Below the pieces are notes generated by a model. That model saw nothing but the letters and a program-made list of their open reading frames with translations, was not told the DNA's origin and ran no database searches. The position numbers were made by a program, and so were the translations under genes. A stretch of 64,000 nt of DNA from an uncultured bacterium (GTDB lineage Bacteria > Chloroflexota > UBA5177 > JANWHV01), in contig CAVSOU010000009.1 of the NCBI GenBank assembly GCA_963729625.1, positions 64,001 through 128,000 of the forward strand, read 5' to 3'. Positions 47,325 through 64,000 of the stretch are shown piece by piece. Position 1 is the stretch's first letter. Each line of letters begins with the position of its first letter.

Positions 47325-48131
47325 ATGCTTGCGTTCGAGAGGCGGATGGCCCTGGCGGAACTGCTCGAGCAGAGCCCCGTGCTGACGGTCGACGACCTCG
47401 CGCGTCGCTTCACCGTGTCGCCACAGACGGTCCGCCGTGACTTCCAATACCTTGAGCAGAAGGGCCTGATCACGCGGAGGTATGGTGGCGCCGTGGCGCG
47501 CGAGGACGACCAGTCCGGCCGTGAACGTGCGTTTGTTGCGCGCGAGTCCGAGAGAATGAGCCAGAAGCGAGCGCTTGCGGCAGCCGCGTTGGACCTTGTG
47601 AAGCCGGGCACGACGGTGATCATGGATGCGTCGACAACCATTCTCGAGCTGGCTCGGGCTCTCCCGTCGACCATTCAACTCACTGCCATAGTCAATGCGC
47701 TGCCGATTGGCATGGAGCTGAGCCGGCGATCCCAGGTGTCGCTCACGATGCTCGGAGGAACGCTGCGGCACACGTCGCTTTCCTTCAGCGGCACTATCGC
47801 CGAAACCGCCCTCCGGCGCCTGTTTGTCGACACAGCCTTCATTTCAGTGCGAGGCCTATCCCTTCAACACGGTTTGACTGAGGCCAACGTCTCGGAAGCG
47901 TCGCTCAAAGAGATCATGGTGCACAATGCCTCGAGTGTAATCACGCTAGCCGACAGCACGAAGCTCGAAAGGATGGCCTTAAGCTACTTCGCGCCTGTTG
48001 CCGCCATCGGGGTACTGATTACCGACGATGGAGCCGACCCACAGATCGTGGCGCAGCTTCGCGACGCCGGGATCGACGTTCGAGTGGTGTGGACGGGCGC
48101 GCAGACGGAGATTGCGGCCAGGCGCGCATGA
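47325..48131 (+). CDS. DeoR/GlpR family transcriptional regulator (probable rhamnose locus regulator)
   Basis: FTVSPQTVRRDF, RRYGGA, MDASTT, LADSTK; adjacent to rha operon. Confidence 0.93.
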   Translation: MLAFERRMALAELLEQSPVLTVDDLARRFTVSPQTVRRDFQYLEQKGLITRRYGGAVAREDDQSGRERAFVARESERMSQKRALAAAALDLVKPGTTVIMDASTTILELARALPSTIQLTAIVNALPIGMELSRRSQVSLTMLGGTLRHTSLSFSGTIAETALRRLFVDTAFISVRGLSLQHGLTEANVSEASLKEIMVHNASSVITLADSTKLERMALSYFAPVAAIGVLITDDGADPQIVAQLRDAGIDVRVVWTGAQTEIAARRA

Positions 48132-48231: not shown

Positions 48232-48370
48232 TGCTCCAGCGTTTTGCGTCTGGAAAGCAGGCTGAATTGTATCGCACGCCTATCTGTTTCGCGAGCAGAG
48301 CGCTGCCATTCGGGCTGGCAGTTAGGTGGTGCGGCTGCACACCAGATCGGAACGATTCTTGGAGGTAGAG

Positions 48371-49888
48371 ATGCACGGCCGGGTGCCGATCCTGCGGCTG
48401 GAGAACATCAGCAAGTCATTTGCCGGAGTCCATGCCTTGCGCGACGTGTCATTTGAGGTATATGGCGGCGAAGTGCACGCACTCGTAGGCGAAAACGGCG
48501 CCGGCAAGTCGACGCTGATCAAGGTCCTGGCGGGCGTCCATAAGCCCGATACAGGTCATGTGTTCGTGGACAGCAATCCGGCCGAAATCGGATCGCCGTC
48601 CGCTGCGCAGTCGCACGGCGTGGCAGTGATCTATCAGGAACCGACTCTGTTTCCCGACTTGAGCGTGGCCGAGAACGTGCTGATGCGGCGGCAGCCAGTC
48701 GACCGTTTGTACAGAATTCGCTGGCCGGCGATGAACGCATCTGTCCAGAGTATTCTGGACAACCTCGGCGTGTCGATTGCAGCTAACAACAAAGTGCGAG
48801 GTTTGAGCATCGCCGACCAGCAAATGGTCGAGGTCGCGAAGGCGCTGTCGATGAATGCTCGCGTGCTGATCATGGACGAGCCGACAGCCGCGCTCACTCC
48901 GCGCGAGGTCCGTGACCTGTTCGCGATCGTCGACCGGCTGCGCGCCAACGGAGCCGCCGTTGTCTTCATCAGCCATCGACTCGAGGAAGTGCTCCAGATC
49001 GCGGATCGCATCACGGTGCTGCGCGACGGCCAGCAAGTGGCGACCATGCCGCGGTCAGAGGCATCCTCGGAGAAGTTGGTGCAGCACATGGTGGGTCGTC
49101 CGCTCAGCGTGCTGTTCGAGCGCGGAGCGAGCAACGTCGGCGACCCCTGTCTCGAGGTACGCGGACTCAGCCGCGGCCGCATCTTCCAGAACATCGACCT
49201 CGAAGTGCGGCACGGCGAGATCGTCGGACTTGCCGGCCTTGTTGGAGCCGGAAGGTCGGAAGTTGCGCGGGCTATCTTCGGTATCGATCGCCCCGATGGC
49301 GGCAGCGTGCTGCTTGACGGCCGCGAGCTCAGGATACGGAGCGCTCGGCAGGCCGTCCGCCTGGGTCTGAGCTATGTGCCTGAGGATCGTGCCGCCCATG
49401 GATTGGTGGCGCCTATGTCCATTCAGCACAACGTCACGCTGGCGATCCTTCGTCACGTGAGCGGGGCGGGCTGGACACGCGACGCGCGAGAGCGAGTCGT
49501 TACCCAGGAGTACGAGTCGCGCTTGCGCATTCGCATGTCTGGTGTCAGGCAGAGGGTGCGTGAGCTGTCGGGCGGGAATCAGCAGAAGGTCGTGCTGGCG
49601 AAATGGCTGGCCACGCAGCCAAAGGTCCTCATCCTCGACGAACCCACGCGCGGTATCGACGTCGGCGCCAAGGCGGAGGTCCACCGGTTGATGGGCGAGC
49701 TGGCCGGGCAAGGGCTGGCTATCCTCATGATCTCATCCGAGCTGCCCGAGGTACTGGCGATGAGCGATCGCATCGTTGTCATGCGCGGCGGCCGCATCGC
49801 CGGCCGATTTACGCGCGGCGAGGCCACGCAGGAGTCGATTATGGCCGCGGCAGCGGGGCAAACAGTGGTGGAAGGAGTCGCGTCGTGA
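48371..49888 (+). CDS. rhaT: Rhamnose ABC transporter ATP-binding protein
   Basis: [35 protein letters not shown]; GGAGG RBS; substrate from context. Confidence 0.88.
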
Positions 49889-50943
49889 TCGCCGGAAGCG
49901 CGGTCGGCCGTGAGACCCGGCTGGATCGCGGCAGTTCGCTCATCATCTGGATTGCTCGTCTTCGCGAGGCCGGCATTATCGTGGCGTTGCTGCTGCTTAT
50001 GACCATGGTCAGCTTCAGCAATTCGACGTTCCTGACTACCGAGAACTTCCGTAACATCCTGCTGGCCATCGCCATCTTGGCGACGCTGGCGATCGGCGAG
50101 ACCATGGTTATCCTCGCCAAGCAGATTGACCTGTCCGTCGCCGCCAACATGGGCGTCACGGTGATGATCATCGCCCAGTTGCTCAAGGCGCATCCAGGCA
50201 TGTCGCTGGGGATAGCCGTACTGATCTGCGTGGTCATCGGCATCGGGCTCGGCGCCGTGAACGGGGTGCTCGTCACCGTTGGGCGCGTGCCGGCGATCAT
50301 CGCCACGCTGGGTACGCTCAACATCTACCACGGACTGCAGTCCATCGCCAGCGGTGGCGGCGAGGTGGTCAGCGGCGACCTTCCCGGCAGTTACCTCAAC
50401 CTGGCCGGCAGCAACGCGATCGCCATTCCGCTGCCCGGCGGGATCGTCTTCAGCATTCGCTGGCTGGTGATATTCCCGGTCGTGCTGGCCATCCTCGCCG
50501 CGTATTTCCTGCGCAGCACTCGAGTCGGCCGCCAGATCTACGCCGTCGGCAGCAACGCGCTGGCAGCGCGGTTGGCCGGCGTCCGCGTCAACTGGATCGT
50601 GTTTCTTGTGTTCGTGCTGTCGGGCGCCCTGTCCGGGCTCGGCGGATTCCTGTACGGCGCGGACTACGGCACGGTGACGGCCGGCGCCGGCAACGGTTTC
50701 GAGCTGCAGGTCATCGCCGCCGTGGTCATCGGCGGTACCACCATAGCCGGAGGCAGTGGTACCATGCTGGGCACGATTCTCGGTTGCCTGCTGTTGGGCG
50801 TCGTTCAGAACGCCCTGGCGCTGCTCAATTTGTCTGAGTTCTGGTCGCAGGCGATCACTGGCATGATCATTCTGGCAGCGGTGGTCTCCGACGCATTGAT
50901 CAGCCATCGCTTGCAACGCCTTCTGCAGGGGGTTCGACGATGA
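49885..50943 (+). CDS. rhaP: Rhamnose ABC transporter permease
   Basis: [29 protein letters not shown]; GTG overlaps upstream stop. Confidence 0.87.
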
Positions 50944-52022
50944 GCGCGGGAAGCGAGCGAGACACCGGGATCGCCGCGACTCCGGTCATGGCAGAGCATT
51001 CCACGGCGCCTGTAAATGCCCTGTTTCGCCGACCGTCCTTGCAGCTGCTGTTGCGCTGGGAAGTTCTCCTGGTAGTGCTGATTGTCGTCGCCGGTGCATG
51101 GTCGTCGTGGCTGTCGCCGTACTTTCTGGACTGGTCGAACATGTTCGACATGACGTCCCAGTTCATGGAGAAGGCAATCATGGCCCTTCCCATGACGCTG
51201 ATCATCATCAGCGGCGGCATCGACTTGTCCATCTCGTCAGTATTGGCACTGGCCGGTGTCTCGTTCGGCCTGCACTATTCGACATCCGGCGATCTCTCGG
51301 TCAGTATCTTCCTGGCGCTGGCCATAGGTCTGGTCGCGGGATGCGCCAACGGCATGATAACCACGCGCGTCAGGCTTCACCCGTTGGTGGTGACGCTGGG
51401 GACGATGGCGCTGTACCGGGGACTGGCGCAGGTTATCCTCGGCGACCGCGCGATCAGCTCATTCCCAGACAATTTCAACAACCTCGGCCAGGGTTACGTG
51501 GGCGTCAAGCCGTTGCTGCCGTTCGGCGACATGCTGCCGTGGCCGCTGGTGATTTTCGCCGTACTGGCGATCATCTTTGCCCTGCTCCTGCATCGCACAA
51601 GTTTCGGCCGATTGATCTACGCCATCGGCAACAACGAGGATGCCTGTCGCTACTCAGGCATCGCGGTCGACAGGATCAAGCTGGTGCTGTACACGGTGTC
51701 CGGACTGTTCGCCGCTACGGCCGGTCTCATCTACGCCTCGCGACAGGGCAGCGCGCGCTGGGACATGGGCACGGGGTTCGAGCTCGACGTGATCACGGCC
51801 GTCGTGCTCGGCGGCACGGACATCAACGGAGGCTCTGGCAGCATACTCGGCACCGTGCTCGCCCTCTTCCTCATCGGCGTGCTCCGCAACGGCATGGGCC
51901 TGGCCAATATCGGCGACCAGAACCAGACCATTGTGATTGGCGCATTGCTGATCTTCTCCATTCTTGGGCCATCGATTGCGCAGCGATTGGGTCTGCGCCG
52001 CGTGGAAGCAAAAGGAGGTTAG
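50940..52022 (+). CDS. rhaQ: Rhamnose ABC transporter permease
   Basis: [41 protein letters not shown]. Confidence 0.88.
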
Positions 52023-52114
52023 TTAGCAGTCGTCGGCAAGTAAACTTGAGCACGAATGTGCAAAGCACCTCGAACGTGCTTGCGTCGAGCTATCAATAAA
52101 GGAGTATTCGTAGT

Positions 52115-53125
52115 ATGCGCCGTTCCCTTCGCGTCATTTGCGCCGCAGTGCTGGTCGGCAGTGTGGCCGCGACCGCCCTACCCCAGTCGATGTCTCTCAC
52201 TGCACACGCGAAATCCTACAAGATCTTCGTGTTGCCCAAGACCACCGACAACCCCTACTTCACAACGGCCTACAATGGTAGCCTTCGGGCCAACAAGGCG
52301 CTTGGCGACTCGCTGAAGATGGTCGGACCAACCTCCAGCAGCACCACGACGCAGACGCAGTACGTGAACCAGCTCATCCAGGAGCACGCGGATGCCATCG
52401 TCGTCTCGGCGAACGACCCGGGCGCGATCAAGGCCGCGCTGCAGAAGGCAATGGCCAAAGGGATCAAGGTAGTCGGCTACGACTCTGATCCGGTCGGCGC
52501 TCGCAACGTGTTCGTCAACCAGGCCGACACCGAGCAAATCGGGCGCATCGAGGTTCAGACGATCGGCAAACTGCTCAACTACACGGGCGAGATTGCCATC
52601 CTGAGCGCGACCACCACGGCGACGAATCAAAACGCCTGGATCGGCTTCATGAAGCAGGAGCTGGCCCTGCCCAAGTACAAGAACATGAAGCTCGACAAGA
52701 TCGCCTACGGGAACGACGATCCGAACAAGAGCACGACCGAGGCCAACGGCCTGCTCACCAGCTTCCCCAATCTCAAGGGCATCATTTCTCCGACCACGAT
52801 CGGTATCCTCGCGGCCGCGCAGGCGGTCAAGGTTGCGGGCGATACAGGCAAGGTGCTTGTCACCGGACTGGGGACACCTAACGACATGCGCGCGTACGTC
52901 AAGGGTGGCCAGTGCCCGGCGTTCGCGCTGTGGGATCCCGGAAACCTCGGCTATCTGGCCGAGTACATCGCGCACGACCTGGCGGCGGGGACCATCACCG
53001 GCAAGGTGGGCGAGAAGTTCACGGTTCCAGGGCTTGGAGCCTACACCATCGGCGCCAACAATGTCGTCGTGCTCGGGCCACCGACCGTCTTCGACAAGAC
53101 GAATATCGACAAGTTCCACTTCTAG
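52115..53125 (+). CDS. rhaS: Rhamnose ABC transporter substrate-binding protein
   Basis: LPKTTDNPYF, SANDP, ATNQNAWI, ISPTTIG, TGLGTPN, LWDP. Confidence 0.9.
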   Translation: MRRSLRVICAAVLVGSVAATALPQSMSLTAHAKSYKIFVLPKTTDNPYFTTAYNGSLRANKALGDSLKMVGPTSSSTTTQTQYVNQLIQEHADAIVVSANDPGAIKAALQKAMAKGIKVVGYDSDPVGARNVFVNQADTEQIGRIEVQTIGKLLNYTGEIAILSATTTATNQNAWIGFMKQELALPKYKNMKLDKIAYGNDDPNKSTTEANGLLTSFPNLKGIISPTTIGILAAAQAVKVAGDTGKVLVTGLGTPNDMRAYVKGGQCPAFALWDPGNLGYLAEYIAHDLAAGTITGKVGEKFTVPGLGAYTIGANNVVVLGPPTVFDKTNIDKFHF

Positions 53126-53378
53126 TCCCAGCGTACGATCGAGCTCTTTGTTTGCCGGGCCTGCGTCGAGAGGCGAATGGTACGGGTGGGTGAGCTGACC
53201 TGCGGGTCAGGGACGGTGAATTGGCATGAGCCGTCATGCTCGCTCCAGGCCTGCAAACGAAGGTCATCGAGATTGCGCTGAGGAGCACGCTCAAGCTGGG
53301 GGCAGGTATTCTGCCCCCAGCGAGCGCTCGACAGACGCTGCCGGCCGTCTGCCCGATTTGCCGACCGGAGGGAGTAAG

Positions 53379-54434
53379 ATGACACCTCGCCAACGGTGGC
53401 GAGCATTGCTCGCCGGAGAACGTCCCGATCGAGTTCCCTGTGACTACTGGGGCACTGCCGAAGTCACCGCGCGCCTGCTCCGCGATCTGGGCTGCGCGGG
53501 CGAAAAGGAGCTGTACGAGCGACTGGGCGTGGATAAGTGCATCCACCTTGTGCCGAGCCATCCGACGGTTGCTTCCGACGGGTGGCACATGCAGTCGCAT
53601 TTCCAGGTCTGGAACATCGGCACGGAAATGATTTCCTACGGCGACGGACTCGGCGTCTATGAAGAGGCGGTCTCGCATCCGCTCGCCGGCGCACGTACCG
53701 TGGCCGACGTGGAAATGTTCAACTGGCCCAGCGTAGACGTATGGGACTACTCCACGCTGCGCGACCAGTGCGCCGCTTGGCCCGACAATCCTATCCTTTG
53801 CGGCTCCAGCGAGCCTTTCTACCTCTACTGTCGCCTGCGCGGCATGGAGCGTTCGCTATCAGACCTCATCGAATGTCCAGAAATAGCGGAGTCAATTCTC
53901 GAGCATATCTTCGCGGTAGACTTCGCGGTGTTCAGCCGGATCCTGCGCGAAGTGGGCGATCGCATCGATCTCATGTACGTGGCGGAAGATCTCGGTACCC
54001 AAGCCTCTCTGCTGATGAGTCCGCGACTCTTCCGGAGATTCCTCAAACCTCGCATGACCAGGCTGATTGAGCTGGCACATTCATTCGGCGTGCGGGTGAT
54101 GCATCACGACGATGGAGCGATCCGGACCGTGATCCCGGACCTGATCGAGGCCGGAATCGACATTCTGAATCCCATCCAGTGGCGCTGTGCCGGCATGGAA
54201 CGCGAGGGCTTGGCGCGGGATTTCGGGTCCCAGCTCGTCTTCCACGGCGGTGTCGACAACCAGCAGACGCTGCCCTTCGGGACCGCGGCCGATGTGCGCG
54301 AGCAAGTGGCCGAGAACATCCTGGCATTTCGCGATGGTAAAGGCTATATCGTGGCGCCATGTCACCACATTCAAGCCAACACGCCGACCGAGAATATCGT
54401 GGCCATGTACGCTGCCGTACAGGAGTTCGGCTGA
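53379..54434 (+). CDS. Uroporphyrinogen decarboxylase-like (URO-D/MtaA superfamily) protein
   Basis: PDRVPCD, LRGME, EDLGTQ, HHDDGAI, LNPIQW, FHGGVDNQ, APCHHIQANTPTEN; GGAG RBS. Confidence 0.88.
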   Translation: MTPRQRWRALLAGERPDRVPCDYWGTAEVTARLLRDLGCAGEKELYERLGVDKCIHLVPSHPTVASDGWHMQSHFQVWNIGTEMISYGDGLGVYEEAVSHPLAGARTVADVEMFNWPSVDVWDYSTLRDQCAAWPDNPILCGSSEPFYLYCRLRGMERSLSDLIECPEIAESILEHIFAVDFAVFSRILREVGDRIDLMYVAEDLGTQASLLMSPRLFRRFLKPRMTRLIELAHSFGVRVMHHDDGAIRTVIPDLIEAGIDILNPIQWRCAGMEREGLARDFGSQLVFHGGVDNQQTLPFGTAADVREQVAENILAFRDGKGYIVAPCHHIQANTPTENIVAMYAAVQEFG

Positions 54435-54563: not shown

Positions 54564-56078
54564 GTGTCACGCTATCTTGCCGTCGACCTGGGCGCCGAGA
54601 GCGGCCGTGTCATGGCCGGCGTGTTCGGCGGTGAGCGCATTGAGCTCGAGGAAATCCATCGTTTTGCCAATATTCCGGTGCGCACGCCGGACGGCTTGCA
54701 CTGGGACACTCTGGGCATCTATCGCGAGATCCTGGCCGGCCTTCGACGTGCGTCCGACCTCCATTCCGGAGAATTCGCGGGCATCGGCGTCGACTCCTGG
54801 GGTGTCGACTACGGGCTGATCGACGCGGATGGGCGGCTGCTGGGCAATCCCTACCACTACCGCGATGCGCGCACGGACGGTATGCCAGACGCTTCCGCGA
54901 AAGTCGTCCCCGCGTCCGAACAATACGCGCGCACGGGCATCGCGGCGCTGCAATTCAACACGCTGTACCAGCTCATGGCGGCCGTTCAATCGGGCGATCG
55001 CACGATCGAGCTGGCGCGCAACCTGCTGCTCATGCCGGACCTCATGCACTACTGGCTGTGCGGCGTGCAAGCCTGCGAACGAACGAACGGCAGTACGTCC
55101 GGCGCACTCGACACGAATGGAACCTGGGCGCGCGACATGATCGAGCGTCTCGGCGTGCCGACCCACATGCTGACAGAGCCCGTGACCGCTGGGTTCAGGC
55201 TCGGCGCGCTCCGTTCGAGCGTGCAGCAGGACAGCTGCCTCGGGGCGGTGCCGATACTATTGCCTCCGACGCACGACACGGCCTGCGCCGTCGTCGCGGT
55301 GCCCGCGGAGCCCGCGCGCGAGGGCGCCGGGCACATGTACCTGAGCTGCGGCACGTGGTCGCTCATGGGGATGGAACTGGAGAGGCCAAACACCAGCGAG
55401 GCGGCACGACTGGCAGGCTTTACAAACGAGCATGGCGCCGGCGGAACGTTCCGCTTTCACACCAACATCATGGGGCTCTGGCTTCTGCAGGAGTCCCGCA
55501 GGGCCTGGGCCCGAAGGGGCTTGCATGCGGACTGGAGCTACCAGGAGCTCATGGAGCGCGCCTCGGCTATCGAGTCCCCGCACGTGGTTATCGACGTCGA
55601 TGCGCCCGGATTCCTCCACCCAGACGACATGCCGGCTGCCATCGGGGCGAGCCTCGCTGCTGCCGACCGTGCGCGCGTGAGCGATCCTGTCTACCTGACG
55701 CGCGCGATCCTGGAGAGCCTGGCTGTGGCGTACCGCGTAACTGTCGAGCGCGTCGAACGCCTGACGGGAGTGGCGGTGCGGACTATCCACATCGTGGGCG
55801 GCGGCTCGCGCAACAGCTTGCTGTGCCAGCTTGCGGCCGACGCAACAGGGCGCCACGTGGTTGCCGGTCCAACTGAAGCTACCGCCCTCGGCAACATCAT
55901 CATCCAGACGCTGGGCGCGGGAGAGATCCGCGACATGGTCGAGGCGCATGAGGTTGCTCGCGCATCGGCCCAGGTGACGCACTACGAACCGCGCGCAGGC
56001 GAAGTCTGGGACGAGCTGCATGCGCGCCTGGTTGGACTACGGGCGGCGGCCCCGAATGCGGGGGCCGACCATAGCTGA
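54564..56078 (+). CDS. rhaB: Rhamnulokinase
   Basis: AVDLGAESGR, DSWGVDYG, YRDART, FNTLYQL, HDTA, GTWSLMG, NIMGLWLLQE, EATALGN. Confidence 0.95.
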   Translation: MSRYLAVDLGAESGRVMAGVFGGERIELEEIHRFANIPVRTPDGLHWDTLGIYREILAGLRRASDLHSGEFAGIGVDSWGVDYGLIDADGRLLGNPYHYRDARTDGMPDASAKVVPASEQYARTGIAALQFNTLYQLMAAVQSGDRTIELARNLLLMPDLMHYWLCGVQACERTNGSTSGALDTNGTWARDMIERLGVPTHMLTEPVTAGFRLGALRSSVQQDSCLGAVPILLPPTHDTACAVVAVPAEPAREGAGHMYLSCGTWSLMGMELERPNTSEAARLAGFTNEHGAGGTFRFHTNIMGLWLLQESRRAWARRGLHADWSYQELMERASAIESPHVVIDVDAPGFLHPDDMPAAIGASLAAADRARVSDPVYLTRAILESLAVAYRVTVERVERLTGVAVRTIHIVGGGSRNSLLCQLAADATGRHVVAGPTEATALGNIIIQTLGAGEIRDMVEAHEVARASAQVTHYEPRAGEVWDELHARLVGLRAAAPNAGADHS

Positions 56079-56193
56079 ACTGAAGTATTCTGGGATGGCC
56101 GTGCTATTGAACGGGCGGAAGGGCTGCGCAGAGAGCGATTTGTAGGGGACGGCGATCCGCGCAGCAGTAGGTAGTGTGAAGTGGAGCGCGAAA

Positions 56194-57429
56194 ATGGTCG
56201 TTGAACAGACGCAGTCGGCCGGGCTGTCGGTCATTGCCGAGGGCCTGACGCGGCAGGGCCGGTCATTGGAAGACGTATTGGCGCGCCTGCGCGCTCAGCG
56301 CATCGAGATGCCAAGTTGGGCATTTGGGAACTCCGGCACGCGTTTCAAGGTGTTCCCGCAGACCGGGGTGCCGCGGACGCTGTTCGAGAAGCTCGACGAC
56401 GCCGCGCAGGTGCAGTCGCTCGTCGGCGTGGCGCCAAGCGTCGCCCTGCACATTCCATGGGACCGCGTCGAGGACTGGAACGCGGCGCGCCAGTACGCTG
56501 GGGAGCGAGGGTTGGCGCTCGGCGCGATCAATCCCAATCTCTTCCAGGATGAAGACTACAAATTCGGCTCGCTGACGCACCCGAACGGCGCGGTTCGCGC
56601 GAGGGCCGTCGCGCATGTACGGGAGTGCATCTCCATCGCGCAGTCCACGCACTCCTCCCTGATCAGCCTGTGGCTGGCCGATGGAACCAACTACCCTGGC
56701 CAGGACGACCTGCGGACGAGACGGCAGCGGCTCATCGCCTCGCTGCGGGAGATCTACGGCGATCTGCCCGCCGGCATGCGCTTGCTCATCGAGTACAAGT
56801 TCTTTGAGCCGGCCTTCTACGCCACCGACATCCCCGATTGGGGCACGTCGCTGTTGCTGTGCCAGAAGCTCGGGCCGCAGGCCCAGGTGCTTGTCGACCT
56901 CGGTCATCATGCCGCCGGGGCCAACATCGAGCAGATTGTGGCCACATTGGTCGACGAAGGGCGGCTTGGCGGCTTCCATTTCAATGCGCGGAAGTACGGT
57001 GATGACGACCTCATCGTCGGCACGACCAATCCGTTTGAGCTGTTCCTGATTTACAACGAGCTCGCCGCGGCGGAGGACGATCCGGTTGCAGGCGCGGCGA
57101 CGCGAGAAGTCGCGTACATGATCGACCAGTCGCACAATGTTGAGGCAAAGATTCCGGCAATGATACAGTCGATCGTCAACTGCCAGATCGCGTATGCGAA
57201 GGCACTGCTCGTCGATCGAGGCGCCCTGAACGAGCTTCAGCAGTCCGGCGACGTCGTCGGCGCCCTGGGCGCCGTAATGGCCGCGTTCGAGTCGGATGTG
57301 CGCCCACTGCTCGTCCAACTTCGGACTGAACTAGGGCTTCCGGCCGATCCGCTGGTGGCCTTTCGCCAAAGCGGCTATCAGGAACGCGTCGCCGCGGAGC
57401 GCGTGGGCGGCACGCCGATGAGCTGGTAA
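56194..57429 (+). CDS. rhaI: L-rhamnose isomerase (RhaI type)
   Basis: PSWAFGNSGTRFKVF, HIPWD, WLADGTNYPGQ, EYKFFEPAFY, DLGHH, DQSHNVE. Confidence 0.95.
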   Translation: MVVEQTQSAGLSVIAEGLTRQGRSLEDVLARLRAQRIEMPSWAFGNSGTRFKVFPQTGVPRTLFEKLDDAAQVQSLVGVAPSVALHIPWDRVEDWNAARQYAGERGLALGAINPNLFQDEDYKFGSLTHPNGAVRARAVAHVRECISIAQSTHSSLISLWLADGTNYPGQDDLRTRRQRLIASLREIYGDLPAGMRLLIEYKFFEPAFYATDIPDWGTSLLLCQKLGPQAQVLVDLGHHAAGANIEQIVATLVDEGRLGGFHFNARKYGDDDLIVGTTNPFELFLIYNELAAAEDDPVAGAATREVAYMIDQSHNVEAKIPAMIQSIVNCQIAYAKALLVDRGALNELQQSGDVVGALGAVMAAFESDVRPLLVQLRTELGLPADPLVAFRQSGYQERVAAERVGGTPMSW

Positions 57430-57444
57430 AGGAGCGCCGGGAAA

Positions 57445-57768
57445 ATGGAACGCTATCTGCAAATCGTGCGCGTCAAGCCGGAGTACATCGAGGAGTACGA
57501 GCGCATTCACCGAGAAGTGTGGCCCGGCGTGCTGGCCACGATTCGCGCGTGCAATATTCGTAACTACTCGATCTATCGCTATGGCAAAGTGCTTATCGCC
57601 TACTTTGAGTACGTTGGCCAGGACTACAAGGCGGACATGGCCAGGATGGCTGCGGATCCCGTGACAAAGGAGTGGTGGACGCATACTGACCCGATGCAGG
57701 AGCCGGTGCCCGAGCAGAAAGCGGGTGAGTGGTGGCTGCGGCTGCCGGAGGTGTTTCACGTCGATTGA
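57445..57768 (+). CDS. rhaM: L-rhamnose mutarotase
   Basis: EYERIHREVWP, IRNYSIY, EWW, EVFH; AAGGAG RBS. Confidence 0.93.
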   Translation: MERYLQIVRVKPEYIEEYERIHREVWPGVLATIRACNIRNYSIYRYGKVLIAYFEYVGQDYKADMARMAADPVTKEWWTHTDPMQEPVPEQKAGEWWLRLPEVFHVD

Positions 57769-57804
57769 GCGCGCCGCGGCACTTGGCGCCGAACCGTCGC
57801 TGGT

Positions 57805-57821
57805 TGTAACATATTGTCACA
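57805..57821. promoter_or_regulatory. Imperfect palindromic operator in an AT-rich promoter region
   Basis: TGTAACA-TAT-TGTCACA upstream of the PHP gene. Confidence 0.5.
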
Positions 57822-57937
57822 GTATGTAATACTCTGATGAGCGACCGAACTGATGGGGCTGCTCCGATCTGGCCGGTGTTCGTGGGCGCTAATCGAATGA
57901 GAGCCGGCGGCCGGCGTCGCCGCAATGGGAATGGCAG

Positions 57938-59242
57938 ATGGCAGTCGAACGCGATCCACTGGCCGCGCTGAAGATGCTGGGTGACCTCTCTGGTCCGCGG
58001 AGTCGGGCGGCGGATGCGCCCAGGCGACTCAAGGTGAACGCGCACATACACATTCCGCCGAACTTCTCCGCGTTTAGCAGCGTCAGGGAGGCGGTAGAGC
58101 TGGCAGCGGCGCAGGACGTCCGCGTGGTGGGGGTAAGTAACTACTACCATTTCGGCGCATACGCAACGTTCGCCGAGCACTCGCATGCGATGGACGTGTT
58201 CCCGCTTTTCGGCCTGGAGGTCATCTGCCTTCTCGACGATCTCGTGCAGGCGGACGTCAAGATCAACGATCCGGGCAACCCGGGCAAGATGTACCTCTGC
58301 GGCAAGGGCGTGACGCGGTTTGCACCGATGTCCGGCGATGCGGTGGGTCTCATGGATACGATCCGCCGCAATGATTCCACGCGGATCGCCACCATGATCG
58401 AACGGGTCGCCCGCCTGTTCGAGGACGGCGGCGTGGACACCGGTGTAACCGAGGCGTCGGTGAAGGCCGCGATCGTCCAGCGCCACGGGTTACCGCTGGA
58501 CACGATCTACTTGCAAGAACGCCACGTGGCTCAGGCCTTTCAGGAAGCCGTGTTTGCGCGTGTTTCCCCCGAAACGCGGACTGCGACACTGCGGGCCGTC
58601 TTCGGCTCGGACCCTGGACCCGGCCTCAACGAAGCGGTGAGGCTACAGAGTGCCATACGCACGCATCTCATGAAGGCGGGCAAGCGCGGTTACGTGGACG
58701 AGACCTTCGTGGGCTTTGACCATGCCTATCGGTTGATCCTGGCGCTGGGCGGCGTGCCGTGTTATCCCGTGTTGGCGGATGGCGCTGCGCCGATCTGTCC
58801 GTTCGAGGATCCGCTGGAGCGCCTGGTTCGGTCGCTCAGGGACCGGCGCATCTACTGTGCCGAGCTCATCCCAAACAGAAATTCTCCGCAGGTGCTTGCT
58901 GCATACGCGCGGGGGCTGCGCGCCGCCGGCATCGTGGTGCTGGCGGGCACCGAGCATAACACGCTGGAGATGCTGCCGATGGAGCCGCAGTGTGCGGGAG
59001 GCATTCCGATCCCGGAAGCGATCAAGGAAGTCTTCTGGGAAGGAGCGCTCGTGGTGGCCGCGCACCAGTACTTGACCGCGAACGGACAGATGGGCTATGT
59101 GGACGAATCCGGAGCGCTGAACCCAGCCTACACGAGCGGCGAGGCACGCATCGAGGCGTTTGCCCAGCTCGGGGAGTCGGTTATCCAGCGATACGGACGG
59201 GTCGCTTGCGCGTCTGCATCAGTCTCGGGTAGAGGATGTTGA
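57938..59242 (+). CDS. PHP-domain-like metallo-hydrolase, function unknown
   Basis: NAHIH (HxH), FGLE, NDPGNPGKMYLCGKG, ELIPNRN, AGTEHN. Confidence 0.75.
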   Translation: MAVERDPLAALKMLGDLSGPRSRAADAPRRLKVNAHIHIPPNFSAFSSVREAVELAAAQDVRVVGVSNYYHFGAYATFAEHSHAMDVFPLFGLEVICLLDDLVQADVKINDPGNPGKMYLCGKGVTRFAPMSGDAVGLMDTIRRNDSTRIATMIERVARLFEDGGVDTGVTEASVKAAIVQRHGLPLDTIYLQERHVAQAFQEAVFARVSPETRTATLRAVFGSDPGPGLNEAVRLQSAIRTHLMKAGKRGYVDETFVGFDHAYRLILALGGVPCYPVLADGAAPICPFEDPLERLVRSLRDRRIYCAELIPNRNSPQVLAAYARGLRAAGIVVLAGTEHNTLEMLPMEPQCAGGIPIPEAIKEVFWEGALVVAAHQYLTANGQMGYVDESGALNPAYTSGEARIEAFAQLGESVIQRYGRVACASASVSGRGC

Positions 59243-61295
59243 TGACGTCAACGATGCACTGGCCGGCGTTCACGGGAGCGCCGAGCCCCCTGGAGATACT
59301 CGTCGAGCTCTCTCGTTTCTTCGGATCTGACCCGGAGCTGGTGCTCGCCGGCGGCGGCAACACCTCGGTCAAGCTCGACGATCGGCTGCTGGTCAAAGGC
59401 AGCGGGCACGCGCTGGCCACGATTGGCCCTGAGGGGTTCGTGGATCTCAATCGCAAGACCCTTCAGGTGCTTCTGGAGAGCGACCTGGGCAGCGCGAGGG
59501 ACCAGCGCGAGGCCGCCTTCAAGCACGCCGTCCTTTCGGCACGACGAGAACCGGAGAAAGGGCAACGACCCTCGGTCGAGGCCGTTCTGCACCATCTCAT
59601 GCCGGGACGTTTCGTCATTCACCTGCATGCAACGCTCGTAAACGAGTTCAGTTGTTGTCGGGAAGGCAAGCGACTCGTCGAGCAAAGCCTGGGCGACGAT
59701 GTTCTCTGGATCGACCTCGTGGATCCCGGCTTCGCGCTCGCCAAGTCGCTGCAGCACGGGCTCGCGGCGTTCCAACGCAGAACAGGCAAGAACTGCCCAC
59801 GCGCGTTGATCATGCAAAACCACGGACTCGTGGTCAGCGGCGATACGCCTGATGAGATCAGAGAGCGCATGGAGTGGCTGTTCGCATCGCTTCGAGACAT
59901 TCGGGTGCACGCCTGCGTTGAGCAGCCGGGTCCGATTGAGACCGTCGTTGCCGTCGCCGAGGCGTCGGCGCTCGTGAACATCATCGCGCCGGCGCTGCGC
60001 GGCCTGCTCAGCGTCGGGCAATCGCTGAAGGTGGTCACGTTCGACGATTCGGACGCGGTGCTGGGCCTGGTTTCGCGCGAGGCAGGCCAGTACGACTGCG
60101 ATGGGTGGGCCGCTCACGCCCGACCAGATCGTGTACTGTCGATCGTTTCCACTGTGGTTCGAGACGAGAGTCGGCGAGACACGCTTCCGACCTGGTGCAG
60201 CGGCTCACGGCGGCGGTGCGTGAGCACGCGGCCACCTACAGCGTTCTGCCGAATGTGGTGTTGGTCCAGGGCCTCGGCCTGTTCGCGTGCGGCGACGCCT
60301 GGACCGACGCAAACATCGTGCGCCTGGTTTACGTCGACGCCATCAAGATCATGGCCGGCGCCGCCGGAATGGGCGGCGTCCAGTACCTCGATGCCGACTT
60401 CAGGAGCTTCATCGAGCAGTGGGAAGTCGAGTCATACCGCCGGCAGATAGCGGCCTCCGCGACCGGAAGGGGCCGGGCGGCGGGGAAGGTCGCGATGGTG
60501 ACCGGAGCCGCGCAGGGATTCGGATTGGAAATAGCCCGGGATCTTGCCGCGCAGGGTGGCCACGTCGTGCTATCCGACGTCAATGTGGAGGGAGCGCGCC
60601 AGGCGGCTGCGGCCCTGGTGGGCCGGTTCGGCGAAGGTCGGGCGCTCGGCCTGGCCATCGATGTGACCAACGCTGAGTCGGTCGCGGAGGCCGTGCACCG
60701 GGTGGTTCGCATGTACGGCGGCCTTGACGTGCTGGTCTCCAACGCGGGTGTCCTTCGCGCCGGCAGCGTGAAAACGCAACTGGAGCGGGACTTCGACCTC
60801 TCGACCGCGGTCAATTACAGGGGTTACTTTCTTTGCGTGCAGAAGGCGGCGCCCATCCTGGCCGTCCAGCACGAGGTGCGCCGCGACTACTGGAGCGACA
60901 TCATACAGATCAACTCCAAGTCGGGCCTCGAGGGGTCGAACAAGAACTTTGCCTACGCTGGCAGCAAGTTCGGCGGCATCGGCTTGACGCAGTCCTTCGC
61001 GCTTGAGCTTGTGACTGACGGCATCAAGGTGAACTCCATCTGTCCGGGAAACTTTTTCGACGGACCGCTGTGGTCCGACCCAGACACGGGTCTGTTCGTA
61101 CAGTATCTGCGCACGGGAAAAGTACCGGGCGCCACCACGATCGAGGACGTCAAACGTTTCTACGAGAGCAAGGTGCCAATGGCTCGAGGATGCACATCCG
61201 CCGACGTGATGTCGGCCATTTACTACCTTATCGAGCAGCAATACGAGACGGGTCAGGCGCTTCCAGTGACCGGTGGACAGGTGATGTTGCACTAG
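59242..61295 (+). pseudogene. Class II aldolase / SDR (SrlD-like) fusion with two frameshifts (~60091, ~60180)
   Basis: GGGNTSVK, RPSVE, IHLH, QNHG; middle frame PLTPDQIVYC; final frame TGAAQGFG, NAG, QINSKSG, YAGSKFGG; may be intact in vivo. Confidence 0.85.
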
Positions 61296-61329
61296 TCGCG
61301 ACAAGGCGAGTAGCGGAAAGACAATGCAC

Positions 61330-63039
61330 ATGACGCAACGTGACGCGGCCGTTCCTACGACGCAATTCGCCGTTCAGTTGGTTGGACCGGGCCAACTGGT
61401 ATTGAACGCGAAGAAGGATGTTCTCCAGCCTGGTCCGCACGAGATCTTGGTGAAGGTGGATGCCGTCGGCCTCTGCTTCTCGGACCTGAAGCTGCTGAAG
61501 CAGTTCTCCGCTCACCCACGCAAAGGCGAGATCGTCACGGGTATCGCCCGCGAGGTGCTTGACTCGTGCCCCAGCTACGTGCCAGGCGACAAGCCCAGCG
61601 TGCCGGGACATGAAGTGGCCTGCCGCATTGTGGCGGTGGGCGATGCGGTCCAGCGCCATCGGGTCGGCGAGCGGTGCCTGGTGCAGACGGACTATCGCGG
61701 CCTCAAGACGCTCGGATCGAACGCCGCGTTCGGCTATAACTTTGAGGGCGGTTTGCAGGAGTATGTTCTGCTGGATGAACGCGTCACAGTCGAGGCCGCT
61801 ACGGGAGAGCGCTATCTGATCCCCGTGCCGGAGACGTTGGGTTCCTCGGCCGTCGCTCTGGTTGAACCGTGGGCTTGCGTCGAGGACGCCTACGCCCACG
61901 CCGACCGACGGACCATACTGGCGGGAGGACGTCTTCTGGCAGTCGCCGACGCCGGACACCAGGTCATCGGCCTTAGGGAAGCGGTTGCGGCGAGTGGTGG
62001 CAGTGTGTCGGTCACGGCCGTCACTGCCGATCCGGACCAACGGGGCGGCCTTGAGGCTCTCGGCTTCCCAATCGTGTACGCGGATCGGATTCAGGATCTG
62101 GTCGATGAAGGCTACGACGACATTGTGTATTTCGGCGCCTCAAAAGAGTCGATCGAGGTACTGAACAATAAGCTGGCGTCCTTCGGCATTATCAACATTG
62201 TGCTTGGCGGCGAGACGATCGGCCAGTTGGTGTCGGTAGGCGTCGGCCGTATCCACTACGGCTTTACGAGATGGATCGGCACGCCGGGACCGTCGGCGGC
62301 CGACTCCTACGCGATCATTCCTGAATCGGGCGAGTTGCGACCGCGCGACAAGGTACTGGTGGTCGGCGCCGGTGGGCCGATGGGACAGATGCACGTGATT
62401 CGCGGCCTGTGCTCTCAGATCGACGGGCTCTCGGTCGTGGGTACCGACGTGGACGACGCGCGGTTGGAATCGCTGCGGCGAAAGGCCGAGCCGCTGTCAC
62501 TGCGCAATGGTGTACCGTTGCGGTTGGTCAATACGGCCAAGGCTCCGCTCGACGAGCGCTTCAGCTACCAAATCCTCCTGGTTCCGGCCGGAGCGCTGGT
62601 GGCGGCCGCGATCCAAGCCAGCGACGACGGCGGCCTGATAGACATCTTCGCCGGCATTCCTGCTCCGACGCGTCACGACCTCGATCTGGACACGTACATC
62701 GCGCGCCGCTGCTACATGTTCGGCACCAGCGGCTCGGATATTCGCGACATGAAGATCATGCTCGACAAGGTGAACTCTGGGCAGCTGGACACGAACTGTT
62801 CGGTCGACGCGATATCAGGAATGGCGGGCGCGATTGACGGCATCGGCGCGGTGGAGAATCGCACGATGGCGGGGAAGATCGTCGTCTATCCGATGCTTCA
62901 CGACGTCGGATTGATTTCCCTGGCCGAGCTCGGCGATCGATTTCCCACCGTGGCTGCGAAGCTTGACGCGGGACAGTGGTGCAAAGAGGCGGAACAAGAA
63001 CTGCTCCGGGTGACCGCCGCGGTCAGCCCGAGCGTCTAG
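61330..63039 (+). CDS. Extended Zn-dependent medium-chain dehydrogenase (L-sorbose-1-phosphate reductase-like)
   Basis: GLCFSD, GHEV, LVEPWACV, VGAGGPMGQMH, GTSGS; about 570 aa; start 61324 or 61330. Confidence 0.82.
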   Translation: MTQRDAAVPTTQFAVQLVGPGQLVLNAKKDVLQPGPHEILVKVDAVGLCFSDLKLLKQFSAHPRKGEIVTGIAREVLDSCPSYVPGDKPSVPGHEVACRIVAVGDAVQRHRVGERCLVQTDYRGLKTLGSNAAFGYNFEGGLQEYVLLDERVTVEAATGERYLIPVPETLGSSAVALVEPWACVEDAYAHADRRTILAGGRLLAVADAGHQVIGLREAVAASGGSVSVTAVTADPDQRGGLEALGFPIVYADRIQDLVDEGYDDIVYFGASKESIEVLNNKLASFGIINIVLGGETIGQLVSVGVGRIHYGFTRWIGTPGPSAADSYAIIPESGELRPRDKVLVVGAGGPMGQMHVIRGLCSQIDGLSVVGTDVDDARLESLRRKAEPLSLRNGVPLRLVNTAKAPLDERFSYQILLVPAGALVAAAIQASDDGGLIDIFAGIPAPTRHDLDLDTYIARRCYMFGTSGSDIRDMKIMLDKVNSGQLDTNCSVDAISGMAGAIDGIGAVENRTMAGKIVVYPMLHDVGLISLAELGDRFPTVAAKLDAGQWCKEAEQELLRVTAAVSPSV

Positions 63040-63195
63040 GCGCGCCCGCTGGCCACGGGCTCGTGCCTGAGGTTGGACGGGTCGCCCGGATGAAATATCT
63101 GTGAGGTAACGATGACAAGTCGCACGTCATATCGTGCCGGTGCCGTATTGCCGCGGCACCTGCCGGATCTCGTTGTGCGAGAAGGGTTCCACTAG

Positions 63196-64000
63196 ATGGC
63201 GACAGTGGTCGAAATGCCGAAGCTTGGCAACACCGTCGAGGAGTGCCTCCTGGCGGCATGGCGAAAACACAAAGGCGATACCGTTGCCGAGGGCGAGATC
63301 ATCGCCGAGATTGAGACTGACAAGACCAACTTTGAGATCGCGGCGCCGGTGGCCGGCACACTCCTGGAGACGTTTTTCGAAGAGGGGGCGCTCGTTCCCG
63401 TCTTCACGAGTCTCTGCGTGATCGGCACGGCAGGCGAGGACGTCGAAGCTTTCCGGCCGCGCACTGCCGCCGACGGCACAGTTGTTGCTTGGAGCGGTGA
63501 AGCATCCGGCGGAAGCTCCGTACAGGCCAGTCCGGCCGTGCAGACGGCGCCGAACGTGGGATTCGCACCCGGTGCGCGTACGGCGCCACTTGCGCTGGGC
63601 CCGTTGAGCCCGCGGGCGCGACGGTTTGCCCGCGAACACGACTTTTACCCGGAAGCGGTAACGGGAAGCGGGCCGGGCGGCAGAGTCCTGGAGGGAGATC
63701 TGCGCGATCTCTACATGTCCTCGCCGCGCATCTCGCAGGCGGCAAGGCGACAGATGACACAGGGCTCGGTGGCGAATGGCGCCGGATCCGGCATCGGCGG
63801 CATGATACGCGCGGCCGACCTGACCGAGCCATCCACGCAGCGCCCGGCAGCGCCGCAACCGGCATCGACCACTGTCGAACGCGGCTCTACAACAGGCGAA
63901 CGCCTGTCTACGACCCGCGAGCGGATCGCGAAGCGCCTGCGGGAGTCCTTGAACTCAACCGCCCAGTACACGCTGAATGGCTCGGCCAACGCCGGCGGAT
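63196..64000 (+). CDS. Dihydrolipoamide acyltransferase (E2) of a 2-oxo-acid/acetoin dehydrogenase-type complex, 3' end outside window
   Basis: Not in ORF track; MATVVEMPKLGNTVEE...EIETDK lipoyl domain, SPRARRFA...GSGPGGRV E3-binding domain, then RERIAKRL. Confidence 0.92.
   Translation, partial: MATVVEMPKLGNTVEECLLAAWRKHKGDTVAEGEIIAEIETDKTNFEIAAPVAGTLLETFFEEGALVPVFTSLCVIGTAGEDVEAFRPRTAADGTVVAWSGEASGGSSVQASPAVQTAPNVGFAPGARTAPLALGPLSPRARRFAREHDFYPEAVTGSGPGGRVLEGDLRDLYMSSPRISQAARRQMTQGSVANGAGSGIGGMIRAADLTEPSTQRPAAPQPASTTVERGSTTGERLSTTRERIAKRLRESLNSTAQYTLNGSANAGG

Follow-up and report, generated by a model that had tools for sequence, protein, structure and literature searches.

The window analysed here is a stretch of 64,000 nucleotides (nt) from a Chloroflexota contig (G000:C9:64001-128000), and the genes at its end belong to an operon that lies directly behind a rhamnose locus (Table 1). 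We read the contig onward past the window end and found a single plus-strand operon of seven genes, which runs from 57938 to about 69033 in window coordinates and ends about 5 kb beyond the window. In order, it encodes a 434-amino-acid (aa) protein that we call X434, a class II aldolase domain with a short-chain dehydrogenase/reductase (SDR), a zinc-dependent medium-chain dehydrogenase/reductase (MDR) of 571 aa, the E2 and E3 components of a lipoyl-dependent complex, a fused E1 alpha-beta subunit (E1ab) and an HxpB-like HAD phosphatase. The X434 stop overlaps the aldolase start in a TGATG at 59240-59244, a 28-nt gap follows, the E2 and E3 genes overlap, and E3 and E1ab are separated by 12 nt and E1ab and the HAD gene by 1 nt, with a perfect 11-bp hairpin 3' of the HAD stop. 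The 156 nt between the long MDR and E2 genes (63040-63195) are the sole sizeable gap within the operon and may be the site of an internal promoter or regulatory element. The original prediction, made from the letters of the window, had described the TGATG overlap, a zinc dehydrogenase of about 570 aa and an E2 gene, all of which we found, the E2 with lipoyl, E3-binding and catalytic domains; the E3 and E1 genes that it proposed to look for lie directly downstream. These genes keep together in at least five phyla, in three gene orders, and the set is probably a deoxyhexose-linked module that feeds acetyl-CoA.

Proteins encoded by the operon

X434 has no match in Pfam (E ≤ 0.001) or NCBIfam, PF02811 included. 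Its AlphaFold 2 model, built from a 34-sequence alignment, has a mean predicted local distance difference test score (pLDDT) of 93.3, and Foldseek aligns it best with RNase AM (9etk; E 1.4e-9, target TM-score (TMt) 0.75), followed by BAD_1165 (3e0f and 3o0f) and the pAp phosphatase 2yb1; over these four structures the E-values range from 1e-9 to 7e-8 at probability 1.0, with TMt 0.68-0.75. On the strength of this model X434 is predicted to have the PHP (distorted TIM-barrel) fold, as the earlier label 'PHP-like' had it, and an assignment to uronate-isomerase-like amidohydrolases was rejected because the fold matches are PHP proteins. Six residues are invariant among the 34 sequences of the family (H36, H38, E94, E339, H340 and H376). 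A search of the family profile against solved proteins returned nothing significant, with PolC as the best match at E 1.1; in this faint alignment the HxH and the glutamate of GLE are kept, and N68-Y69 stands in place of the canonical D-H. Since X434 seems to have other residues in place of several canonical PHP metal ligands, a phosphatase activity is uncertain. The family is large, with at least 1990 sequence clusters at E ≤ 1e-20 among 8000 candidates scored. The best 120 clusters are nearly always labelled 'hypothetical protein' and have no precomputed Pfam domain, and PF02811 is assigned to 12% of the members in the nearest Atlas clusters.

The long MDR (MDR571) matches ADH_N and gives no ADH_zinc_N match in Pfam at E ≤ 0.001. 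Its invariant residues include the zinc ligands C51, H96, E97 and E181, the Rossmann motif GAGGPMG at 348-354, and D375, which is as in NAD-dependent enzymes. MDR proteins usually have about 330-380 aa; in the AlphaFold 2 model (pLDDT 91.5) the additional length forms an alpha/beta domain inserted at roughly residues 195-335. Foldseek places the model with threonine 3-dehydrogenase (Tdh), butanediol dehydrogenase, sorbitol dehydrogenase and carbonyl reductases (TMt 0.7-0.8, about 335-350 aa covered). The nearest solved relatives, (R,R)-butanediol dehydrogenase 6ie0, which is the best sequence match, and threonine 3-dehydrogenase, oxidise CH3-CHOH groups. Similarity to E. coli yggP amounts to 27% identity over residues 39-348, about half of the protein. 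The plasmid collection holds one full-length relative (32% identity, 564 aa) on plasmid p380k of Deinococcus sp. AJ005 (L088 8120-12874), where the operon reads SDR, long MDR, FGGY kinase and GntR and lies beside mannose-type isomerase and epimerase genes. This context suggests that the long-MDR family may be broader than the module.

The aldolase domain keeps the phosphate-binding positions GGN.S and K.SG, the acid/base position PS.E and the metal ligands H.H and NHG, in agreement with the original reading of intact ligands, and none of these varies among the 25 module fusions compared. Two further Aldolase_II genes in the genome both lie outside this locus. The SDR domain, which carries the motif QINSKSG...YAGSK, is by sequence closest to sorbitol-6-phosphate dehydrogenase and appears SrlD-like from end to end: on model NF009050 the window piece scores 229.8 bits (228-234 with the orthologues; cut-off 307) over model positions 2-258 of 259, and PDB entry 5o3z is matched at E 6e-49. 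The ten best matches to it in the plasmid collection, all at 37-39.5% identity, fall on srlD genes or on E. coli loci without annotation, and this upholds the likeness first noticed from the motif. Stand-alone SrlD has about 259 aa, and the module SDR is either fused or bears an extension of about 90 aa.

Aldolase/SDR fusions are familiar from RhaEW, and we compared the module fusion with these at several levels. On the RhaEW model TIGR02632 (cut-off 567.75 bits) the two window pieces reach 108.8 and 207.2 bits, and the intact fusions of loci L003, L012 and L065 reach 334, 317 and 307 bits. Canonical RhaEW, taken from annotated plasmid proteins of Frondihabitans, Deinococcus deserti and Alkalihalophilus, score 884-1017 bits; the first two lie in rha loci and the third lies outside one. 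Module fusions pass none of the 11 PRK08324 sub-models and are 25-32% identical to four bifunctional aldolase/SDR proteins, namely three TIGR02632-positive RhaEW and one Rhizobium paralogue. The fusion therefore does not group with canonical RhaEW, in keeping with the earlier idea that the operon is something other than the usual RhaEW pathway.

The aldolase/SDR gene is interrupted in the present assembly, so that what had been called a fusion lies in three frames. Two overlapping open reading frames (ORFs) are called, 59236-60450 with the class II aldolase domain and 60105-61295 with the SDR; towards the end of the first and at the start of the second the sequence looks out of frame, and on three-frame translation the conserved GGPLTPDQIVYCRSFPLWFE turns up in the third frame. 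When the intact proteins of L002 (684 aa) and L003 (693 aa) are aligned by tblastn, residues 1-293 fall on frame A, residues 295-322 on frame B (AMGGPLTPDQIVYCRSFPLWFETRVGE) and residues 324-693 on frame C up to 61292. Each junction leaves over one residue and four bases, which indicates two 1-nt insertions 88 nt apart, at about 60091 and 60179. Among related loci, 34 carry aldolase and SDR as one ORF; the gene is in pieces in L004 and L027, and it runs into a contig end in L016, L020 and L078. The break was also considered as a counterpart of the natural two-gene form of Planctomycetota; this was rejected, as the natural split falls at about residue 410, before the SDR domain, and the window breaks at about 293 and 323, within the aldolase-type domain. 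An apparent 1588-aa triple fusion of X434, aldolase/SDR and MDR in L055 (1804-6570) was likewise rejected because its frame crosses masked N stretches and out-of-frame sequence.

Judging from the sequences, the split is more likely an assembly error than a pseudogene, because 34 relatives have a single ORF and the genome, a metagenome-type assembly with 87% completeness and 5% contamination, contains other split genes. A genome of the same genus, G190 (C14, L093), has X434, aldolase and MDR genes with frameshifts, and both assemblies seem prone to insertions and deletions, so that gene calls in both need care. The G190 aldolase/SDR protein is in one frame over residues 179-693, within a genome that itself carries many frameshifts, and at 69% identity the DNA alignment to G190 is too divergent to locate the insertions. 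An unrelated soil metagenome yields one 151-nt contig of depth 2 that aligns to 59969-60120, differs at two positions and has one base fewer at 60089, at the first break. Reads from two runs, with shares of 0.12 and 0.10 of the stretch, leave the second break uncovered, and this is a hint rather than proof. Homologues of E1beta and E2 are scattered over several frames on C13 (19606-22099) and C18 (2953-5422) of the same genome.

The complex components carry the expected motifs, with TDKT (lipoyl K43) and DHQVVDG in E2, CLNVGC in E3, and the thiamine diphosphate (ThDP) motif GDAS...NCMDN together with YRISGHSPSD in E1ab. On pyruvate dehydrogenase (PDH) models both halves of E1ab and the E2 score below cut-off (178 bits for E1alpha, cut-off 394; 225 for E1beta, cut-off 321; 270 for E2, cut-off 445), and the best solved relatives of E1ab and E2 are PDH and branched-chain E1 and E2. 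The AcoC model NF011457 aligns with E2 residues 2-170 only, the lipoyl and E3-binding parts, at 63.8 bits (cut-off 307), and neither AcoA nor AcoB occurs among the model matches. Elsewhere in the genome, 2-oxoglutarate dehydrogenase (OGDH) is encoded on C7 (SucA 1116 bits, SucB 543 bits), and an E2-E1alpha-E1beta set with separate subunits lies on C10 (G000:C10:1154181-1159411, L094 3181-8411; 279, 360 and 346 bits on PDH models). With OGDH and the more PDH-like set located there, the module complex is an extra, dedicated one, and its E2 lies outside both the OGDH operon and the most PDH-like operon of the genome.

Two other clusters of this genome are of note. The C10 set is directly followed by a gene for a 582-aa FGGY kinase and may be another sugar-linked lipoyl complex. 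On C11 (G000:C11:657223-661109, L095 2223-6109) an SDR, a transketolase split into N and C halves in two genes, and a Tdh-like MDR lie together, which may represent another ThDP-dependent sugar or polyol route.

Table 1. Positions of the module, the upstream rhamnose locus and the element between them (window coordinates)
Feature	Position	Strand	Basis
DeoR-family regulator, head of the rhamnose locus	47325..48131	+	NCBIfam AgaR/GlpR/SrlR-type DeoR models, best 203 bits, below cut-off
Sugar ABC transporter: ATPase, two permeases, binding protein	48326..53125	+	Pfam BPD_transp_2 (twice), Peripla_BP_4; ATPase similar to AraG/RbsA-like models
URO-D/MtaA-like protein	53226..54434	+	Pfam URO-D 2.3e-20; MtaA/CmuA-type models below cut-off
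rhaB-like FGGY kinase	54564..56078	+	TIGR02627 rhamnulokinase 399 bits, below cut-off 528
RhaI isomerase	56176..57429	+	TIGR02635 586 bits, above cut-off 531
RhaM mutarotase	57445..57768	+	Pfam rhaM 1.7e-34
Putative operator-like element, three TGTNAYA heptamers at 10-nt spacing	57805..57831	.	Within the 34% GC core of the rhaM-X434 gap
X434, divergent PHP-fold protein (predicted), 434 aa	57938..59242	+	AlphaFold model and Foldseek; no Pfam or NCBIfam match
Aldolase/SDR frame A, class II aldolase domain (intact-protein residues 1 to ~293)	59242..60090	+	Pfam Aldolase_II 6.9e-16; tblastn of L002/L003
Aldolase/SDR frame B, 28 codons between two 1-nt insertions	60095..60178	+	23/28 residues identical to L003 295-322
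Aldolase/SDR frame C, end of the aldolase-type domain and SrlD-like SDR	60183..61295	+	adh_short 1.4e-44; 81% identical to L003
MDR571, long Zn-dependent medium-chain dehydrogenase, 571 aa	61324..63039	+	ADH_N 7.5e-14; insert of ~140-200 aa
E2 dihydrolipoyl acyltransferase, 458 codons, of which the first 268 are in the window (gene end 64572)	63196..64000	+	Biotin_lipoyl, E3_binding; full gene 2-oxoacid_dh 4.7e-66
E3, 447 aa	outside window	+	TIGR01350 466 bits, cut-off 409; CLNVGC
Fused E1 alpha-beta (E1ab), 819 aa	outside window	+	E1_dh, Transket_pyr, Transketolase_C
HxpB-like HAD phosphatase, 218 aa	outside window, to ~69033	+	NF008087 (hexitol phosphatase model) 248 bits, cut-off 191

Conservation of the gene set

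With X434 as bait we searched contigs of one genome per species, kept 80 loci of the 89 relatives found, and mapped the window proteins on them by tblastn (E ≤ 1e-10). Full-view loci (n = 41) offer at least 7 kb upstream and at least 9 kb downstream, and adjacency of the SDR was judged where there was room of at least 2 kb. In 47 of 66 loci the SDR is directly 3' of X434, or in 44 of 46 once Armatimonadota are set aside, and the long MDR comes next in 43 of 55. Among the full-view loci the SDR is present in 33 of 41, and 30 of these 33 have E1ab and E2 as well. The PHP protein, aldolase/SDR and long MDR are thus conserved together with E1ab and E2 across phyla, with and without rha genes, which answers the question of cross-genome synteny that the original prediction had raised. 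In ten loci the SDR, of 354-394 aa, comes without the aldolase domain.

Three arrangements recur. Acidimicrobiales and Solirubrobacterales have the gene order of the window. Planctomycetota, Acidobacteriota and some Armatimonadota carry E1ab and a DeoR regulator divergent from E2-(E3)-X434-aldolase/SDR-MDR, and Chloroflexota carry transaldolase-E2-E1ab-SorC divergent from X434-aldolase/SDR-MDR-(Tdh-like MDR). Identity of E1ab to the window protein is 72-81% in Actinomycetota, 58-61% in Planctomycetota and allies and 36-44% in Chloroflexota; the corresponding values for E2 are 50-61%, 25-49% and 31-44%.

Some copies of X434 stand alone. A quick tree places 18 Armatimonadota loci without partners in one clade, together with 6 loci too short to judge. 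The genome of the window also has a second X434 paralogue (G000:C11:785016-786266; L082 10010-11317, minus strand), 54% identical, which adjoins clpB and an MMPL transporter gene without sugar genes, like the stand-alone Armatimonadota copies. The neighbours of these stand-alone copies, the C11 one included, share no theme and give no functional clue.

These data bear on the simplest explanation, that an ordinary RhaEW gene happens to lie beside an ordinary PDH operon. E1, E2 and E3 are PDH-like by their best matches and the fusion shares the broad PRK08324 family with RhaEW, both as such an accident would have it. However, the synteny extends over the phyla and the three gene orders given above, the fusion falls far below every curated RhaEW-type cut-off at which canonical proteins score so highly, and E1alpha, E1beta and E2 stay below the PDH cut-offs in a genome that has a more PDH-like set and OGDH elsewhere. 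In addition, X434 and the long MDR, two families without curated annotation, always lie in between. A chance neighbourhood is therefore hard to credit.

The rhamnose and fucose setting

Kinase, isomerase and mutarotase genes of the rhamnose locus are all located upstream of the module, as had been read from the window, with RhaI above its model cut-off. The 169-nt gap between rhaM and X434 had been described as AT-rich with its own palindrome. This holds for a 41-nt core at 57800-57840, where GC is 0.34 compared with 0.626 window-wide; the whole gap has an average GC of 0.615, and the palindrome is better described as a triple TGTNAYA repeat, in which heptamers 1 and 2 match on the reverse strand too. 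The pattern has four overlapping matches at this one site of the window, with 0.2 expected, and was not found in the 81 other loci searched for it. A repeat search of the gap gave a GC palindrome at 57905-57916 as the sole palindrome, and simple scans of 57400-58100 found neither a sigma-70-like promoter nor an intrinsic terminator. By its sequence the element resembles an operator and is perhaps a candidate target of the DeoR-family regulator. Separate regulation of the module, as in the original prediction, is a possibility. Upstream of the ABC ATPase gene, an AT-rich segment at 48190-48220 shows by eye TTGTCA and ATAT elements on the reverse strand, as in the element at 57805-57831.

The same locus has a URO-D/MtaA-CmuA-like (methyltransferase-type) gene between the sugar-binding protein gene and rhaB, and L063 has a comparable URO-D-type gene 3' of the long MDR, as L005, L042 and L075 have near X434. 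The protein might act in the demethylation of O-methylated deoxy-sugars.

Beyond the HAD gene the opposite strand of C9 encodes an XylB-like FGGY kinase and a HAD-IIA hydrolase (L001 12325-17994, L083 region). Farther downstream are genes for a LacI regulator, L-fucose isomerase (FucI, 1043 bits, cut-off 775), a xylose-isomerase-like TIM-barrel protein, an SDR, an MDR and an aldo-keto reductase, and still farther a second LacI, a further ABC transporter and two MDRs; the C9 stretch downstream of the module showed no FucA-type aldolase. The module is thus flanked by rha genes on one side and an L-fucose isomerase cluster on the other.

A rhamnose link was also seen INDEPENDENTLY: RhaI and RhaB lie upstream of the module in Actinomycetota and Chloroflexota. 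Any rha gene occurs in 15 of the 41 full-view loci, namely 9 of 11 in Actinomycetota, 4 of 6 in Chloroflexota and 2 of 12 in Planctomycetota, the last with kinase matches only. Outside these 41, the Planctomycetota locus L053 combines a RhaA-type isomerase, a separate RhaE-type aldolase (354 aa), RhaM, E1ab, a regulator, E2, E3, X434, SDR, MDR and a rhamnulokinase-like kinase (490 bits), and L077, also of Planctomycetota, has the same set without RhaM; their RhaA-type isomerases score 670 and 697 bits. Together with the RhaI loci, these tie the module to rhamnose genes built around two non-homologous isomerases.

The modest share of loci with rha genes is what would be expected if the module acted on another sugar or polyol phosphate, such as a hexitol, tetritol or ketose, and shared sugar islands with rha genes in some lineages. 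Planctomycetota neighbours, which include KpsF-like, mannitol-1-phosphate-dehydrogenase-like, PfkB and inositol-1-phosphate-synthase genes, are in line with this, as are the large mixed sugar island that makes up the window region and the patchy occurrence in the window's own phylum, where 3 of the 200 other genomes sampled have E1ab (E ≤ 1e-100), as does 1 of 4 within the genus. Nevertheless, rha genes of both isomerase types flank the module or interleave with it in three phyla and in the window, the aldolase part is RhaE-type, and no other sugar-specific isomerase and kinase set is equally recurrent. We consider another sugar unlikely. The original prediction had allowed for rhamnose products or a second sugar, and its first option, extended to fucose products, is the one we retain; the second is less likely with the module repeatedly embedded in rhamnose loci.

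Candidate routes and comparison with known systems

L-Lactaldehyde is a common product of the rhamnose and fucose pathways, according to the RhaEW paper (PMC3870299). From gene content, layout, motifs and synteny, and from the distinctness of the proteins from RhaEW and from other 2-oxoacid complexes, we infer all substrates and steps of a lower pathway for 6-deoxyhexoses (L-rhamnose, probably L-fucose) that would run through C3 compounds. RhaI and the kinase would form L-rhamnulose-1-phosphate, and the RhaE-type class II aldolase domain would split it into dihydroxyacetone phosphate and L-lactaldehyde. In NAD-dependent steps, SDR and long MDR would oxidise the C3 methyl-carbinol to a methyl-keto compound (pyruvate via lactate, or methylglyoxal), which E1ab-E2-E3 would turn into acetyl-CoA and a C1 unit (CO2 or formate), with X434 and the HAD enzyme as accessory phosphoesterases. 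We put this particular version forward tentatively, as a possibility that falls somewhat short of probable. In the uncharacterised route of the original prediction, the co-conserved ThDP- and lipoyl-linked sugar module is present as supposed, and its order of steps, with interconversion, dephosphorylation by the PHP protein and then ThDP cleavage, stays a proposal like the rest of the chemistry.

Several observations weigh against the C3 route. It offers no role to the PHP protein and the HxpB-like hexitol phosphatase, and a pyruvate-specific complex looks superfluous beside the other PDH-like set. On the SrlD model the module SDR scores 228-234 bits and three canonical RhaEW 138-172 bits, so that the SDR is far nearer SrlD than canonical RhaW is, which hints at a phosphorylated sugar or polyol as substrate rather than lactaldehyde; according to the RhaEW paper, YuxG-RhaW and E. 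coli SrlD share 22% identity (PMC3870299). In Planctomycetota, E1ab at 58-61% identity against 25-49% for E2 and E3 suggests a special E1 substrate. Recurrent neighbours in the 80 loci (tblastn E ≤ 1e-20, at least 60% of the query) include genes without a role in this route: a KpsF/GutQ-like sugar-phosphate isomerase in 6 loci, a mannitol-1-phosphate-dehydrogenase-like protein in 5, transaldolase in 8, all Chloroflexota, and an extra Tdh-like MDR in 12 Chloroflexota loci, with a 32% match to the latter also in the stand-alone locus L019. Neither LutB nor FucI was found in the 80 loci. In 4 Chloroflexota loci there is a RhaD-like aldolase (161 bits, cut-off 170), which would make the fused aldolase redundant if both did the same job. 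Finally, if the break in the aldolase/SDR gene is real, the window's copy of the pathway is disabled.

The SrlD-like SDR, the two phosphoesterases, the sugar-phosphate neighbours, the RhaD-like aldolase and the redundant PDH-like complex fit better with a route in which the sugar is turned round and cut at the C6 level. The long MDR would reduce the C2 keto group of a 6-deoxy-ketose-1-phosphate to a 6-deoxyhexitol-1-phosphate, the SDR would oxidise the penultimate carbon at the methyl end to give a 1-deoxy-ketose-6-phosphate, a substituted acetoin, and E1ab-E2-E3, cleaving in the manner of acetoin dehydrogenase, would release acetyl-CoA and a tetrose-4-phosphate. The latter would enter the pentose-phosphate network via transaldolase or the KpsF-like isomerase, no CO2 would be lost, and the aldolase-type domain would be an epimerase or serve a side branch. 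SrlD oxidises a carbon four carbons from the phosphate, and the same spacing would apply to C5 and C1-phosphate of a 6-deoxyhexitol-1-phosphate, on which the SDR, SrlD-like over its full length, could then act. The long MDR falls in the polyol/butanediol/threonine dehydrogenase branch with weak yggP similarity, the HxpB-like hexitol phosphatase ends the operon, and the p380k operon pairs an SDR with a long MDR and an FGGY kinase. The transaldolase, KpsF-like and mannitol-1-phosphate-dehydrogenase-like neighbours, the 10 loci whose SDR lacks the aldolase domain, the separate RhaD-like aldolase of 4 loci and the better conservation of E1ab than of E2 and E3 also agree with it.

We nonetheless regard this C6 route as rather unlikely. 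Our narrow literature search, with subscription journals uncovered, found neither such a pathway nor its intermediate, and the strictly conserved, apparently catalytic aldolase site (25/25) would be left without a clear role. L053 and L077 still keep a separate RhaE-type aldolase in the operon, E1 and E2 are PDH-like by sequence, rhamnulose-1-phosphate and fuculose-1-phosphate would yield different tetrose stereoisomers, and the SDR of Deinococcus p380k, at 27% identity, is not SrlD-like. The proposed 'flip' has an analogy in sorbose catabolism, with sorbose-1-phosphate reductase (SorE) and glucitol-6-phosphate dehydrogenase (SorD). If the C6 route were true, the module would hold the first lipoyl-dependent complex that acts on a sugar phosphate and would be a rhamnose route without aldol split or CO2 loss.

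A third possibility keeps the aldol split and dispenses with the methyl-keto compound: E1ab would add ThDP directly to L-lactaldehyde and the complex would oxidise it to lactyl-CoA, as a lipoamide-linked aldehyde dehydrogenase. The module is kept without the aldolase domain in 10 loci, as expected of a lactaldehyde-consuming unit, and its E1 is dedicated and conserved. This leaves both dehydrogenases, X434 and the phosphatase without a role and would need non-decarboxylating aldehyde oxidation by an E1; to our knowledge, no such physiological reaction is established. There is some precedent in Caldicellulosiruptor bescii, where the disposal of L-lactaldehyde has been assigned to a three-subunit acetoin dehydrogenase homologue, Athe_0702-4, of the RhaR2 cluster, as a prediction (PMC8579813, 2021). 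Overall, direct capture of the aldehyde seems improbable.

The C3 route and its rivals concern compounds of wide occurrence, as rhamnose and fucose are major sugars in plant, algal and bacterial polysaccharides, and lactaldehyde, a toxic C3 product, is handled in ways that differ among bacteria and are partly known. Among uncultured bacteria of soil, peat and sediment the module is common, with carriers in Acidimicrobiales, Chloroflexota, Planctomycetota, Armatimonadota, Acidobacteriota and Verrucomicrobiota. A solution would close a gap in metagenome-based models of carbon flow and give functions to the X434 and long-MDR families. It might bring to light a ThDP/lipoyl complex whose substrate is not a 2-oxoacid, and a route from deoxy-sugars to acetyl-CoA would be useful for metabolic engineering. 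The enzyme families are familiar, and the conserved combination may be an uncharacterised one that joins two unannotated families to a lipoyl complex with perhaps a new substrate. Within the limits of the same narrow search, we found no account of this gene set, and the nearest is the C. bescii prediction (PMC8579813).

In comparison with RhaEW (YuxG) of B. subtilis and Chloroflexus aurantiacus (PMC3870299), the intact module fusions of related loci have the same build of an extended class II aldolase-type N-terminus and a C-terminal SDR. The aldolase motifs are common to both, and both take the same place in rha loci without RhaD. The module SDR is more SrlD-like, however, with NSKSG where canonical RhaEW has an S-K-N-type motif, and the module fusion always comes with X434, the long MDR and the E1/E2 complex, which canonical loci lack. 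A term search of the RhaEW paper text gave no pyruvate dehydrogenase, dihydrolipoyl enzymes or acetoin (PMC3870299). With SrlD the module shares an SDR that aligns end to end and an MDR partnered with it, and with the SrlD and SorE-SorD systems the DeoR/SorC-type regulators that lie beside it in other phyla. It differs in that the SDR scores below the SrlD cut-off and has an aldolase-type region fused to it or in front of it; the MDR, which the original prediction had likened to SorE, has 571 aa with a large insert and is weakly yggP-like.

In acetoin catabolism, an MDR-type butanediol dehydrogenase makes a methyl ketone that the E1 alpha/beta, E2 and E3 of AcoABCL turn into acetyl-CoA. The module resembles this system in pairing an MDR with an E1-E2-E3 complex, and the best solved match of its long MDR is (R,R)-butanediol dehydrogenase. 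Its E2 is a standard three-domain acyltransferase, its E1 is fused and its setting is sugar catabolism, unlike AcoABCL. The C. bescii Athe_0702-4 cluster is likewise a ThDP/lipoyl-type dehydrogenase in a rhamnose cluster, proposed from genomics alone for the last catabolic step; it is described as having three subunits rather than a fused E1ab, and the passage on it names no PHP-like, SrlD-like or long-MDR partners (PMC8579813).

Finally, other rha operons are extended towards the C3 product, a precedent for the C3 route. In some species lldD or lldEFG lie within RhaR regulons (PMC3870299). On plasmid 3 of D. deserti, lutABC stands right behind rhaB, and in the window's genome (87% complete) no LUD-domain (LutB/LutC) gene was found. 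The additional genes stand behind those for the kinase, isomerase and aldolase, as the module does, and carry the C3 product on, as is proposed for the module. The Lut and Lld proteins are wholly different from those of the module, which would go one step further, to an acyl-CoA-forming complex.

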